NCBI GenBank assembly: GCA_048213135.1 | Contig: PS015062.1 | Location: forward strand, 100,943 to 158,279 | Length of the DNA: 57,337 bases | Direction: 5' to 3' | DNA from: Reclinomonas americana ATCC 50394 | Taxonomy: Eukaryota | In this document: piece after piece, positions 1 through 57,337 of the stretch | How positions within the stretch are numbered: position 1 is the first letter of the stretch | How the letters are laid out: each line of letters begins with the position of its first letter | The notes under the pieces: generated by a model | The model's input: the letters and a program-made list of their open reading frames with translations, nothing else | Told to the model about the DNA's origin: nothing | Databases searched by the model: none | Translations under genes and position numbers: made by a program

Positions 1-2184
1 ACAGTGGCCAGCTGCAAGCCGGCAGACGTAGAGTACTGTATGGTGGCGGATTGTGCCACGTGTCGGAGGGTGAGCTTGGGGACGAATCCTACATGCATAG
101 AGAGTGAGCAAAACGGTAAGTTCGGCTTGCACGTCGCCAATAAAAGCACAGACCTGCCGCTGTTGAAATAATGGCCACTTCCGGGTTCACAGAGGCACTC
201 GTCACCGTAGCGCGATCCTTGAAATCGCTGCTCACGTCAAACTGGAACGGGCCGGAGGCGGGAAACTTGACAATGTCTTGTCCGTCGGGATTCACAATGC
301 TCAGGTACTGAAAATCGGAGCGCAGCGTGAAGTAGCTGCCCATGTCCGCGCGGTTGCCGAGTCGGAGTTCGGAAACAGCGTTGTCGGTGCCCAGACCAGG
401 TGGGCGCACCTCAAAGGCAGAGCCCCAGGCCTGCACTGAGCCGGATTTGAGCGACGGTTGCTGTACCGAACCGGCCACCATGTACACGTTGCCGCCGGGG
501 TTACCCGAGCCGCCCGTGATGACCACATTGCCGCCGACACTGCCGGCGCCACCAGTGAGACGGACATTGCCGCCCACACTGCCCGTGCCACCAATGACAG
601 AGAAGTCGCCGCCGGGGCCAGCGAGCTGCAGCGAGGCGGAGAACGGTGGCGGGTGAGTAAGGCATATTTAACTGCGGAGCCAAAACTTTGCGCGCAACTC
701 CTCGCTGCCCGATCATGTAGGTCGTACCGCCTACAGTGTCGGCCGGAGCGCGATACACGGTGAAATCCAGCGTCTTGTTGCTACCGAATTGCAGCGACGA
801 TGTCATGAGGGAGGCGGTCAGGGTGCTGGCCGACGTTGACTGGAACAATCTGCGAGCGGCGGACGTCAGCGACTGGCGGCCGGAGTGAGGAGACGGTCAC
901 GTGATGATGAATGAATGCAACTTTCGAATGGCGGGCTCACGATCGCCAAAGGCAGCAGCACGGATCGATTGCAACGAGGCCGGCTGGAACACGAGCAGTT
1001 GGTCGTTGTTGCGTGCAAGAGTGAGCGTGGAGTCGTCGGGCGACGACATGGTGAAGCTGCCGGTGGAGGAGCCGCCGGAGAATGAAAGGCGCACACTCGA
1101 TGCACCACGCAGCGATATATCGGAGCCGGCCACAAATGCCGGTGCGCTTACTTGAGAGGATGCAGAGAGATTTTGTACAGTGGCCGAGCCTGTGCACCGA
1201 GAAGACAAAAAATGAGGGATAAAAGGCAAGAAACTAGGAATGGTGCTTTTTTTCGCTCACCTTGAACATTAACAGAAGGCAGGCCAAGAGTGCCGCTGCT
1301 GGGGAAAACCAGCGGCCGGCCGTAGATGATGAGCAGGGCAATAATGCCGTACAACAACAGCACGTGGAGAATGATAATGGACCACAATATGGCACGCTTG
1401 CATCGAGAGCGCGCTTCGGCCGACTTGACCGACGTCTCGCGGTCCAACTGCTCCAGCACCGACACGTTGGCGTTGCGGAAGAGGCGATCGCTGCTGCCTG
1501 ACACTGCAACTCCAGCACCGCCACCGCTTCCATCCCTGCCACCCACCACTACTTGCGATGGTGACATTACACCCGACGGGGCCGACGACAGCGGCGATCC
1601 TTGCCGGTCCATGATTGCCGGCAGCGGATGAATGGGCACCCGCGACAGGGGCGGCAACGCCAGTGGCCGCGTGGGCCCTCCCGCCGCACCGCGAATCGAA
1701 GGCAACACAGCCATGCGTTTGTCGCCGAATCCACCGTCGGCGGAGCGCGACGAGGCAGTGTCCTCGGTGAGTGGGCGGTCCGTGTCGCCCGCAGCCGGTT
1801 GTGGCTGATCGCCGACAGAGCCGCCAGTATTCGGAACGATACCCTCTGGCGTCTTGCGCGGCGGCGGTGACGGCAACAGAGACCCCGGCCGCCGCCGCTC
1901 GGTTGGTGTCGCCACGGCACCCGGCAGAATCGACGTCAGCACCATGGACTTGCCCGGATCGCTAAACGGATACACCAGCTCCGACGCCTCGGCCGCCGTC
2001 GTGGCCTGCGGTACAGCCGGTGTCGGCGGTGCAAACGGACGCCGCCGTCCAGGCGCCAACGGCTGATGATGTGCGTATTGATGTGGTGGTGGCGGTGGAG
2101 GCGGCGGTGGTGGTGGCGGCGAAGGAGCCGTCGGCAGCGCCGCAATCGCGGCCGGCGGCGGCATTGGCGCCGCCACCAACTGCA
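1..2184 (-). CDS. Multi-exon type II membrane protein (partial): Pro-rich region, one TM helix, then Gly-rich GGxV repeats; function unknown
   Basis: Exons 1261-2184, 922-1189, 699-849, 154-625 and <=88 join in frame via GT-AG introns. TM segment AILWSIIILHVLLLYGIIALLIIYG; repeats GGDFSVIGGTGSVGGNVRLTGGAGSVGGNVVITGGSGNPGGNVYMVAGS. The 5' part runs into a gap and the 3' part runs off the window. Confidence 0.7.
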
Positions 2185-2647
2185 NNNNNNNNNNNNNNNN
2201 NNNNNNNNNNNNNNNNNNNNNNNNNNNNNNNNNNNNNNNNNNNNNNNNNNNNNNNNNNNNNNNNNNNNNNNNNNNNNNNNNNNNNNNNNNNNNNNNNNNN
2301 NNNNNNNNNNNNNNNNNNNNNNNNNNNNNNNNNNNNNNNNNNNNNNNNNNNNNNNNNNNNNNNNNNNNNNNNNNNNNNNNNNNNNNNNNNNNNNNNNNNN
2401 NNNNNNNNNNNNNNNNNNNNNNNNNNNNNNNACACACACACACACACTCACACTCTCACACACACGCACCCTTACGCTCACTCTGCTCTCACTGGGGCAC
2501 ACTCACTCACGCACACAGCTACAGAGCGGACACGCCTTCTTCTCTCACACACACTCTCTCTCTTCCCATCTCTCACCCTCCACTCACTCATCTCTCCCCC
2601 TCCCTCTCTCTCTCTCCCTCTACTCCCCGCTTGTTGCGCGCGATCAG

Positions 2648-55100: not shown

Positions 55101-57337
55101 TGCTCTCTGGCACATGCTGCATGGAGCTTGTCGACCAGCGTGGCAATCGGTTCTCTGTGGACGACGTGGGCGAGGCTGTCGTTGCGTTTCCCCTTCAGCC
55201 AATCGCGATCTTCGATGACTCCTTCCCCTTACATGGCCGTATGTGCAGGTGGAAATGTGCGAGGACGAAAGCGACTTGCAAGTATCGCACCGCCCGCATC
55301 TGTATGCTGTGCGCCGAGACGGCACTGGCATTCATTTCCTGCGCGAGGACGATGTGTCGACATTTGTGCACGCAGCACAGGTGCGTGAGGCGTACAACTA
55401 GCTCTGCACATGCATTTTTTCTCACACTTCTTCGCAGGCCGATCCCGAGCACACCACCATCATCAACGAGCCGGCACTGGGTGACGAGCAGTTTGTCACA
55501 GCGCACACGTTCCTCACCCGGCCGGTATTCAAGCCGCCGCTGTGGTCCGACAAGCTGATTCCGCGAGCCGTGGCACCGCCAGCCTCTGCGCAACTGGTGT
55601 CTTCGTCGTCGGCCTTGGCCGGTCCGCAGCACTACGTTGTGATGCGGCAGTTGGTGCAGCACGCCAATAGCACGGCGAAGGAGTGGCACTCGATTCGTGC
55701 GGGTGTTGAGCGATGGCGCAATTGGTCGTCGCAGCGGAGAGAGCACTCGTCGGGACTCGGGGCATCGGATACGCGAACCGAGAAGGAGAGGCAACTGGCC
55801 AATTCGATCAACATGGAGAGTCTGCGTTCGTTGCGCGGTGAGGCCGACGACGTGGAGCACCGTGCGCTCGAGCAGTACCAGGAGTCGCTGAAGCCGGTAC
55901 GCCAGTGACCACAGAGAGAGAAAGTGATTGATTTGTGTGGCGAGTTTTCATTCCATGTTGTGTATGTATCACAGCCACCACCGCCGCCGCCGCCGGTAGT
56001 ACCACCGCCACCACCACCCAAGGTGCGCAAGCAGCGACCGGCTGACCCAGATGCGTTGGACCCCGCCGAGGCGCAAGCTTTCCCCGACTCGTACTGGGGC
56101 ACGGATGATGGCCAAGGAACTCTGCAGGTGCGAAACAGAGGACTCGATGCTCCTTTTCTCTTTCGTCCGCCTCACATCATGCTTCGTGCTATGCAGCGTG
56201 GTCTGCCGCGTCGAGTGGTCCCGAAGCAGTCGCCTGCGCAACGTACAAACTCGGGCTTGTACGACGACGACGGTGGCGACGACGACTCGGAGAACGAATC
56301 GGCTGGGTATGGAGAGGACGAGGCGGGAGCCTACGATGCGCAACCGGTGAGCTGAGCTGTGTGCCGCGCGCACAATCTTTCCGCTGCTTCGCTAATCGCC
56401 ATGTTGCACAGCATGACGCCACGGATCAGGAGGGTGCTATCGATTATGCCACAGAAGAGGCGACGGAGGAGGGCACAAGCACTGGAGGTGGTGCGAAGCG
56501 ACGACTGCAGCCGGCGAGCTCGAAGAATCAGTTTGTTGCGTTTTGCTTTATGGAGTTTTCTCTTGCGGAGGAGCGTCCGCCGCTGACTGCACTGTACCGC
56601 TCCGCAGTACAATGTGTACGGCCAGCCACGAAAGGCGGTGCCAGTGGTGAGCAGCCTCAAGCAGCAGCGAGCGCCAGCCATGCCCAATGTGGATCGTAGT
56701 CGCATGGAGGCGGCCAGTCGCCGGCAAGTGAAGACTCTCTCGACACGCATGATCAGCGAGCGCAAGGGCGAAGGTTGGTGACGAAATGTGCGAGTCACTG
56801 TCGTGCAGCTATAGCATCTCACACCGCCTCGATGCGCTAGAGCTTCTGCACGGTGTTGCTGCGAATCGACTCAACACCATGTCATCAAAAGGATCGTCAC
56901 AGGTGTGTTACTATTGGGTTGCTTTTTCCCGGCATTTCTTGCCTGATGCTCACGCGCGAGTGCAGCCGGTCTCTGGTGGCGTGGCCTCGTTTGTGTTGAC
57001 CCCTGGCGAACTCCGTCTGGGCACACTGCTGCTTGGTTGCACGTTGCGTCGTCAGTGGCGGTGTGGTCTCCGTGTGCGTCTTCTTGCGCTCAAACGACTC
57101 GTCGGTGTTTTTGTTGCAGATATCGTGCCTCGTTGCAGTTGACCAATGTCGGTCACGACGTCGGTCGCTTCCGTGTGAATGCGTTTGATTCACCCGACAT
57201 GCGACTCATTTACAAGAAGGGCGGAGTGCGTCTCTTTTTCATGCTCTATACACGTCGGACGCCTGCATCGTTACTCACATTGCTTTGTGACACGCAGGTG
57301 GCTCCCGGCCTCACCCTCAAGATGGAACTGGAGCTGG
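46128..57337 (+). CDS. SPAG17: SPAG17/PF6-like central-pair axonemal protein (3' end beyond the window)
   Basis: STAVVLHNLIEQ, YMEELDRRALSQAL, LFPADG, DPQTGGRVRTREDYVMTVSYPDGSVLVQHADGTRF, LYAVRRDGTG, YNVYGQPR, and a C-terminal PapD/ASH-like segment GCTYRASLQLTNVGHDVGRFRV...GVAPGL. Confidence 0.85.
46395..46504. repeat. (CA)n microsatellite; further CT-rich satellites at ~52572-52735
   Basis: Seen directly. Confidence 0.95.

Follow-up and report, generated by a model that had tools for sequence, protein, structure and literature searches.

A 57,337-nucleotide (nt) stretch of the Reclinomonas americana ATCC 50394 genome (contig PS015062.1, positions 100,943 to 158,279; the whole stretch is referred to below as the window) was analysed with respect to the 5' splice sites (donors) of its introns. 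The window includes 4,835 N in 18 blocks and is gene-dense, with short introns throughout, their median length being about 69 nt and their 3' ends CAG or TAG. Gene identities, assigned from Pfam matches and homologues, include a very large ankyrin/HECT ubiquitin-ligase gene, a kinesin gene, an RNA ligase gene, an O-methyltransferase gene, two tandem nucleotide-diphospho-sugar-transferase paralogues (A and B) and an OFA-family MFS transporter gene (Table 1). The introns have two kinds of 5' splice site. The first is the ordinary aG^GUGnGU, which relies on a terminal G of the exon, and the second is H^GUUGCGU (^, exon-intron boundary; H, any base except G), an almost invariant, purely intronic signal of seven bases. 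Positions are numbered from the boundary, +1 being the first base of the intron and -1 the last base of the exon.

GTTGCG occurred 78 times on the two strands of the window, compared with 44.95 +/- 6.42 occurrences in 100 dinucleotide shuffles (shuffle maximum 63). This is about 33 more than expected, roughly as many as the donors claimed in an earlier reading of the letters alone (the sequence-only reading). Genes were predicted using a dynamic-programming exon chainer trained on the window, which combined an acceptor matrix with scores for the length and composition of introns and for coding potential (periodic Markov model). Under neutral donor scoring, in which any GT was accepted, GTTGCG was the top hexamer, accounting for 12 of the 121 predicted donors (p=2.5e-8) and for 1.2 % of all 6,622 GT sites. 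Expectation-maximization from random starts separated the neutral-model donors into 'g.aG^GTGcGTg' (about 0.6) and '.tct^GTTGCGTtt' (about 0.4), and the Bayesian information criterion was best for two donor classes (3714, compared with 3854 for one and 3809 for three). The observation of two donor classes made in the sequence-only reading is confirmed.

A further donor model was given only positions +3 to +10 (the exon-blind model), so that any link between donor type and exon end would not be circular. Of its 151 predicted introns, 119 were retained (45-130 nt, YAG acceptor, gene coding sequence of at least 450 nt), the 32 that were dropped being long, having a non-YAG acceptor or belonging to tiny models. 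Retained donors with G at +5 were designated class 1 (66 donors) and those with T at +3, G at +6 and a base other than G at +5 class 2 (28 donors); many of the other 25 lay within low-complexity stretches and are probably false. GTTGCG was the commonest donor hexamer in this filtered set (25 of 119), followed by GTGCGT (11) and GTTTGT, and class-2 donors were present in at least seven gene models. Class 1 represents about two thirds of the introns and class 2 about a quarter to a third.

At every coordinate given by the sequence-only reading the hexamer, the strand and the base before it were correct. Of its 37 'shifted' donors, 25 were called by the exon-blind model and 12 were not, one of the latter being 37018, which was missed because its intron is about 970 nt long; conversely, the model added GTTGCG donors at 10634, 48673 and 21183 (minus strand). 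Twelve sense-strand exonic copies of GTTGCG were not called as donors in the gene models (for example 7220-7225, 7052-7057 and 53171-53176; the copy at 17008 may be a donor), indicating that the hexamer alone is not sufficient. A full-text search found no description of GTTGCG or GUUGCG as a splice donor, logos in figures and supplements being outside its reach.

Class 2 was far more specific than class 1 and is not the 'same consensus with one extra T' that had been suggested for it. T was present at +3 in 28/28 class-2 donors, G at +4 in 25/28 and C at +5 in 28/28, whereas C occupied the matching +4 position in only 23 of the 66 class-1 donors (p=3e-10). Class-1 donors had G at +3 in 43 cases, and at +4 their counts were C 23, T 21, A 19 and G 3, so that the preference for A at +4 that is typical of most eukaryotes was not evident from them. 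The intron background was A 18 %, C 26 %, G 26 % and T 29 %.

Membership of the two classes was tied to the last base of the exon, as the sequence-only reading had claimed. G was found at -1 in 51 of the 66 class-1 donors and in one of the 28 class-2 donors (38282) (Fisher p=7.9e-12; exon-blind model, filtered set), and 51 of the 58 donors behind G carried +5G. The frequency of -1G at class-2 donors was only mildly lower than before unused exonic GT (22 %, p=0.008), and compared with unused exonic GTT (13 %) the difference gave p=0.10. The association stems mainly from the need of ordinary donors for -1G, class 2 being indifferent to the exon end. Six non-G exons had been listed as the few that keep the unshifted form; three of these were called by the exon-blind model, but up to 15 non-G donors with +5G were found, many of them in weak, low-complexity parts of the models. 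Phase 2 was commoner among class-2 introns (12/28) than among class-1 introns (12/66), in line with a codon position that is under constraint at the exon end.

The position of the cut was examined using protein homologues and paralogues. An exon search with the OFA transporter returned 15 homologues, and P0001, P0008, P0011 (transcript-derived) and P0012 (bacterial) were compared with the window by tblastn. Five OFA junctions assigned to class 2 (37018, 38282, 39637, 40034 and 41706) were fixed by homologues without indels; at 38282, reading through the intron would insert 22 residues that are not present in P0001, P0008 or P0012. In four of the five, exon 2 opens with G, so that shifting both ends of the intron by one base would leave the mRNA unaltered. 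At 39637 the first bases of exon 2 are TG, and only A^GT...AG^TG yields the Met found in all four homologues (KP-M-MSE in the homologues); a slid cut would give Arg. This agrees with the cut before the G that had been proposed for this site. Among the filtered class-2 introns, 28/28 end in YAG and the first base of exon 2 is other than G in 18/28, so that slid junctions would require arbitrary, non-AG 3' ends. In addition, paralogues A and B align at 31178 and 34212 with the exon, ^GTTGCGTAA and TGCAG^ exactly kept, while the intron interior has diverged and contains indels (60 vs 77 nt). The homologue and paralogue alignments confirm that the predicted class-2 cleavage lies before the G.

Class 2 consists of genuine U2-type GT-AG spliceosomal introns whose 5' signal is unusual, as judged from the length, acceptor and branch-like motif that they have in common with class 1. 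Median length was 69 vs 69.5 nt between the classes (Mann-Whitney p=0.24), and the split between CAG and TAG acceptors was 56/10 in class 1 and 24/4 in class 2; a GT start and a YAG end were conditions of the model and filter, so that only the CAG/TAG split is an observation. YTVAY, a loose motif for which there was no chance control, was found 8-45 nt from the 3' end in 51/66 class-1 introns (median 18 nt) and 19/28 class-2 introns (median 20 nt). No difference in length, acceptor or branch-like motif was thus found between the 66 class-1 and 28 class-2 introns. Removal of the intron restored the homologue protein at the five OFA junctions and at one class-1 junction (homologue P0016). U12-type introns were rejected, since RTATCCTY occurred once in the window (41288-41295, minus strand), compared with 1.46 expected by chance, and at none of the listed donors.

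The 5' end of standard U1 small nuclear RNA (snRNA) is given as AUACUUACCUG in PMC4856993, which also lists -6.5 kcal/mol for a human shifted site. Duplexes of this end with the donors, predicted using RNAduplex, had a mean of -6.6 kcal/mol for class 1 and -0.9 kcal/mol for class 2. For model sites, H^GUUGCGU (+0.5 kcal/mol) was predicted to pair less well than unshifted H^GUGCGU (-1.1 kcal/mol), because the shifted site gains the C9 pair and loses C8; the only pairs predicted between standard U1 and H^GUUGCGU, in the shifted or the bulged offset, were +6:C4 and +7:A3. These values do not support the suggestion that, in pairing with U1, +1G makes up for the lack of -1G. The base of standard U1 that faces +5 is U, so A rather than C would be expected there; GUUGAGU-type sites with +5A were predicted to be more stable (-2.7 kcal/mol), yet none of the 28 class-2 donors was of this type (two GTTGAGT sites had been listed by the sequence-only reading).

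Altered U1 ends were also considered. With ends made to match GCG, H^GUUGCGU was again predicted to pair less well than H^GUGCGU (-4.2 vs -7.0 and -6.2 vs -9.0 kcal/mol), and only a change at U1 position 8 reversed this order (-8.3 vs -4.3 kcal/mol). A screen of 277 U1 5' ends, none with more than two substitutions, gave G/C at positions 5/6 as the best end for both classes together and also for class 1 alone (-6.7 and -8.9 kcal/mol), whilst the best end for class 2 alone additionally had C8 changed to A or G (-8.7 and -8.8 kcal/mol) and fitted class 1 poorly. Predicted pairing energy with a single U1 thus does not explain the extra U of non-G exons, and their preference for it would need either a second form of U1 or a cause outside U1.

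A near-invariant seven-base signal with a fixed C suggests a partner RNA with G at that place. We infer, tentatively, that class 2 is recognized by the co-adapted 5' end of a U1-type snRNA, one base out of register. Pairing would then lie one nucleotide off the cleavage site, with +3U to +7U taking the places of +2U to +6U, a G of the U1-type end facing the invariant +5C, and +1 also pairing with the adapted end. The partner might be a single U1 that has been re-tuned, or else a second copy beside an ordinary U1, possibly with a purine replacing C8. Standard U1 would not serve class 2, and U6, U5 and Prp8 would subsequently fix the cut at the GU. The sequence-only reading had mentioned variant snRNAs or altered proteins as a fallback, and this is most likely to be the part of it that would hold; its idea of a shifted register is plausible.

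Several considerations weigh against an adapted U1-type end. The sample comprises about 30 class-2 sites from one window, half of them in one gene. The U1 5' end shows almost no variation across eukaryotes, which makes an altered U1 unlikely a priori. A is present at +4 in 29 % of class-1 donors, compared with 18 % of the intron background, which is the direction expected from standard U1. With only one adapted U1, pairing would still favour unshifted H^GUGCGU, and the fits of the variant U1 ends, being derived from the donors themselves, are a prediction and not evidence. It is possible, although rather unlikely, that a two-key major spliceosome operates here, in which a U1-type snRNA reserved for this purpose, or else a U1 with a re-tuned 5' end, would be complementary to GUUGCGU and serve at least a quarter of the introns; class-2 exons would then be freed from the need for a terminal G.

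U1 variants whose genes encode an altered 5' end are known as minor species to which few targets have been assigned. They would likewise provide a second specificity beside standard U1, but here a variant would have to serve a large share of all introns. In tunicates, splice-site recognition has been remodelled across the lineage and most donors fit standard U1 poorly, and the authors raise a shifted register (PMC13326754); tunicates abandon the GT/AG rule, whereas in the window GT-AG is kept and a new, highly specific motif is found downstream of it.

A rival explanation, which corresponds to the main proposal of the sequence-only reading, is that standard U1 reads H^GUUGCGU in a register shifted by +1, or with +3U bulged, the weak duplex being propped by U1C, LUC7-type or other proteins. 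The pairs proposed are +1G:C9, +3U:A7, +4G.U6, +6G:C4 and +7U:A3, and the class-2 positions +1, +3, +4, +6 and +7 do mirror -1, +2, +3, +5 and +6 of class 1. A shifted register exists in humans, where all validated noncanonical U1 registers together are estimated at 1.5 % of sites (Tan et al. 2016, PMC4856993, citing Roca and Krainer 2009), and the human shifted sites resemble class 2 in that the GU is cut at the usual place, the best complementarity lies one base downstream and +3U and +6G are present. LUC7 paralogues are also reported to discriminate between 5' splice sites of the exon-side and intron-side kinds (PMC11842720). However, the human figure covers all noncanonical registers, whereas a single motif accounts for 25/119 donors here (28/119 for the class), and the human sites as described there keep an A-rich complementarity to standard U1 (-6.5 kcal/mol), whereas in GUUGCGU an invariant C faces U and duplex energies of about 0 to -1 kcal/mol are predicted. 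Recognition by standard U1 with protein support also leaves the invariant +5C unexplained and offers no gain over unshifted H^GUGCGU, and we consider it unlikely.

A less probable explanation is an extreme form of the known split consensus, in which class 1 would be exon-side, read by U5 loop 1, and class 2 intron-side. Class 2 would be selected mainly when the site is passed on to U6 and U5, its +3U being looped out, and U6 or a modification of it would favour GCGU in this lineage. PMC11732430, PMC9803359 and PMC11842720 distinguish AG//GUNNN donors (U5 loop 1) from NN//GURAG donors (U6 ACAGA box). The window resembles that arrangement in having a bimodal donor population in which exon-side (-1G) and intron-side strength are anti-correlated, class membership being opposed to -1G here too. 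It differs in that the intron-side class is GUUGCGU, which is longer, near-invariant and one base off register, and not GURAG, and in that the exon-side class still keeps +5G, as the 51/58 donors behind G illustrate. The +3R/+4A/+5G of the known U6 class was present in 0/28 class-2 donors, and GUUGCGU in the normal register would give the ACAGA box no pairing; the split consensus is judged improbable here.

The junctions might instead be mis-set, the real cuts lying nearby or both intron ends being shifted one base downstream, with GTTGCG merely a motif adjacent to the donor. An in-frame GT does lie 3 nt upstream at 7433 (7430, picked by a neutral first pass) and at 55181, and a slide would leave the mRNA unchanged in the 10/28 introns with G at the start of exon 2. 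Against this, homology at 39637 permits only the cut before the G, a slide would create non-AG 3' ends given the YAG ends and non-G exon-2 starts described above, both intron ends are kept between the paralogues, and a downstream GU at +6/+7 is missing in 9/28 introns and would break the frame. A one-base slide and a cut at the +6/+7 GU were rejected on the basis of the homologue junctions and the intron-end statistics, and mis-set junctions in general are very improbable. An introner-like family of inserted introns, all with GTTGCG at the 5' end, is scarcely credible in spite of the near-invariant common terminus and uniform length (about 70 nt), since class-1 introns are equally long, no inverted copy of the motif was evident at the 3' ends (acceptor contexts were judged by eye, no search being run) and class-2 interiors are no more alike than others (mean local-alignment score 7.5 for class 2, 7.4 for class 1 and 7.4 for mixed pairs; 95th percentile 11 in each).

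The U1 5' end and the GURAGU donor rank with the best conserved pairs of interacting RNAs in eukaryotes and, to our knowledge, noncanonical registers are known only as rare human exceptions. A genome whose commonest donor hexamer hardly fits standard U1 would be a natural experiment, which could show how a cleavage site is selected independently of U1 pairing, whether co-evolution of snRNAs and splice sites is possible and how coding constraints on exon ends are relieved. In practice, gene finders trained on a single donor matrix will mis-set many junctions here, as the neutral and one-matrix passes of this analysis did.

Table 1. Genes and donor sites in the window (^, exon-intron boundary; neutral and exon-blind refer to the gene models that called the site)
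Feature	Position	Strand	Context and support
Ankyrin/HECT ubiquitin-ligase gene, very large	~4.7-17.1 kb	+	Pfam/homologues
Kinesin gene	17.3-22.9 kb	-	Pfam/homologues
RNA ligase gene, intron-less	27543-28853	+	PF09414, E=1.3e-14
O-methyltransferase gene, intron-less	28994-29680	+	PF01596
Nucleotide-diphospho-sugar-transferase paralogues A/B, tandem	31060-33120, 34090-36140	+	PF03407
OFA-family MFS transporter gene	36738-42140	+	Pfam/homologues
Class 2, A^GTTGCG	693..698	-	exon-blind
Class 2, T^GTTGCG	6032..6037	+	HECT gene; neutral, exon-blind
Class 2, A^GTTGCG	6942..6947	+	HECT gene; exon-blind
Unused decoy, T^GTTGCG	7220..7225	+	34 nt upstream of real donor 7254; out of frame with acceptor
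Class 2, C^GTTGCG	7433..7438	+	HECT gene; neutral, exon-blind
Class 2, A^GTTGCG	7896..7901	+	neutral, exon-blind
Class 2, A^GTTGCG	8417..8422	+	exon-blind
Class 2, T^GTTGCG	9059..9064	+	first-pass model, exon-blind
Class 2, T^GTTGCG, absent from sequence-only reading	10634..10639	+	exon-blind; neutral model took in-frame GT 15 nt downstream
Class 2, T^GTTGCG	10893..10898	+	neutral, exon-blind
Class-2 variant, C^GTTTCG	11040..11045	+	exon-blind
Class 2, A^GTTGCG	12104..12109	+	neutral, exon-blind
Class 2, T^GTTGCG	12622..12627	+	exon-blind
Class 2, C^GTTGCG	13134..13139	+	exon-blind
Class 2, C^GTTGCG	15010..15015	+	exon-blind; another GTTGCG 8 nt upstream at 15002
Possible class 2, T^GTTGCG	17008..17013	+	last HECT exon; 75-nt in-frame intron without stop; not called
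Class 2, A^GTTGCG	17877..17882	-	kinesin gene tail; neutral, exon-blind
Class 2, C^GTTGCG, absent from sequence-only reading	21178..21183	-	kinesin motor domain; 69-nt in-frame intron; exon-blind
Class 2, A^GTTGCG	22820..22825	-	kinesin 5' part; exon-blind
Class 2, T^GTTGCGTAA	31178..31183	+	upstream intron of paralogue A, 60 nt; paralogue alignment
Class 2, T^GTTGCGTAA	34212..34217	+	equivalent intron of paralogue B, 77 nt; paralogue alignment
Class 2, T^GTTGCG	37018..37023	+	OFA; ~970-nt intron, acceptor before 37988; P0001/P0008 H(A/V)C^(I/L)GS, no indel
G^GTTGCG	38282..38287	+	OFA; 66-nt intron; VLG^GTG; only GTTGCG donor behind G; called by model
Class 2, A^GTTGCG	39637..39642	+	OFA; 219-nt intron; homologues KP-M-M(S/G/T)E
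Class 2, T^GTTGCG	40034..40039	+	OFA; 85-nt intron; IPL^Y contiguous in P0001, P0011; called by model
Class 2, T^GTTGCG	41706..41711	+	OFA; 68-nt intron; STM^YTM contiguous in P0001, P0008, P0011; called by model
Class 2, A^GTTGCG	44870..44875	+	neutral, exon-blind; exon 2 begins AC
Possible class 2, C^GTTGCG, absent from sequence-only reading	48673..48678	+	neutral, exon-blind; low-complexity part of gene I, weak model
Class 2, C^GTTGCG	49479..49484	+	neutral, exon-blind
Class 2, T^GTTGCG	49749..49754	+	called with GAG acceptor, hence outside filtered count
Class 2, C^GTTGCG	55181..55186	+	neutral, exon-blind; in-frame GT 3 nt upstream
Class-1 example, CAG^GTGCGT	55381..55386	+	19-residue read-through not in homologue P0016
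Class 2, T^GTTGCG	56535..56540	+	neutral, exon-blind
Class 2, C^GTTGCG	57043..57048	+	exon-blind

At two of the sites in Table 1 the flanking protein does not settle the assignment. For 17008 the reading frame gives no decision, the Pfam HECT match stopping just before it at profile position 300 of 306. The exon flanking the donor at 21183 (minus strand), 21184-21528, corresponds to Pfam Kinesin positions 120-214, and the site falls in a variable loop where homology does not fix it. An exhaustive search with the gene J exon 55438-55896 gave one partial homologue, P0016, which supports only the class-1 intron at 55381. No match was obtained in a homologue search with the HECT-gene exon 9124-9681, and a word-based search gave no relative of the RNA-ligase protein. 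Several genes in the window had no Pfam family match, and Pfam found nothing in the exons of gene J or gene A. Searches of the window against Rfam gave no snRNA gene at gathering thresholds and no spliceosomal snRNA at E<=5, where one sub-threshold match to SCARNA2, a small Cajal body-specific RNA, one to sR10, a box C/D small nucleolar RNA (both of which Rfam classes among its snRNA/snoRNA types), and weak microRNA-like matches were listed.

Related OFA loci on metagenome contigs (L001 and L003-L005, 38-55 % identical) contained no GTTGCG, their donors being ordinary ones such as G^GTAAG, G^GTGAG, G^GTACG and C^GTAAGA; these loci are too distant to date the origin of the motif. The OFA transporter of the window was 44-52 % identical to the alphaproteobacterial OFA transporter P0012 per aligned exon segment, except for two segments (about 33 % and about 36 %), and has a C-terminal extension of bacterial type. 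Its likeness to P0012 could reflect either an old transfer or simple conservation. The gene also contains a 59-nt micro-exon at 39220-39278 (plus strand; ..VVVANSMDLATLSQGSLLQE), behind which lie the donor GAG^GTAACG and an intron of 75 nt that is in frame and free of stops; the gene finder read through this intron, and the gap was shown by homologue P0001.

Paralogues A and B were about 82 % identical over their aligned 5' parts and had common intron positions, with the same donor class at each. The RNA ligase and O-methyltransferase genes are adjacent, and both lack introns amid intron-dense DNA. Long (CT)n/(GT)n microsatellites were present within introns and intergenic regions (20622-20810 on the minus strand, 15330-15460, 16519-16630, 46360-46500 and elsewhere); they often adjoined N blocks and were read by naive models as SLSL or CVCV 'exons'. 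One kinesin intron, whose donor G^GTGCGT lies at about 20870 on the minus strand, extends over about 850 nt and consists mostly of (CT)n and a block of 447 N.

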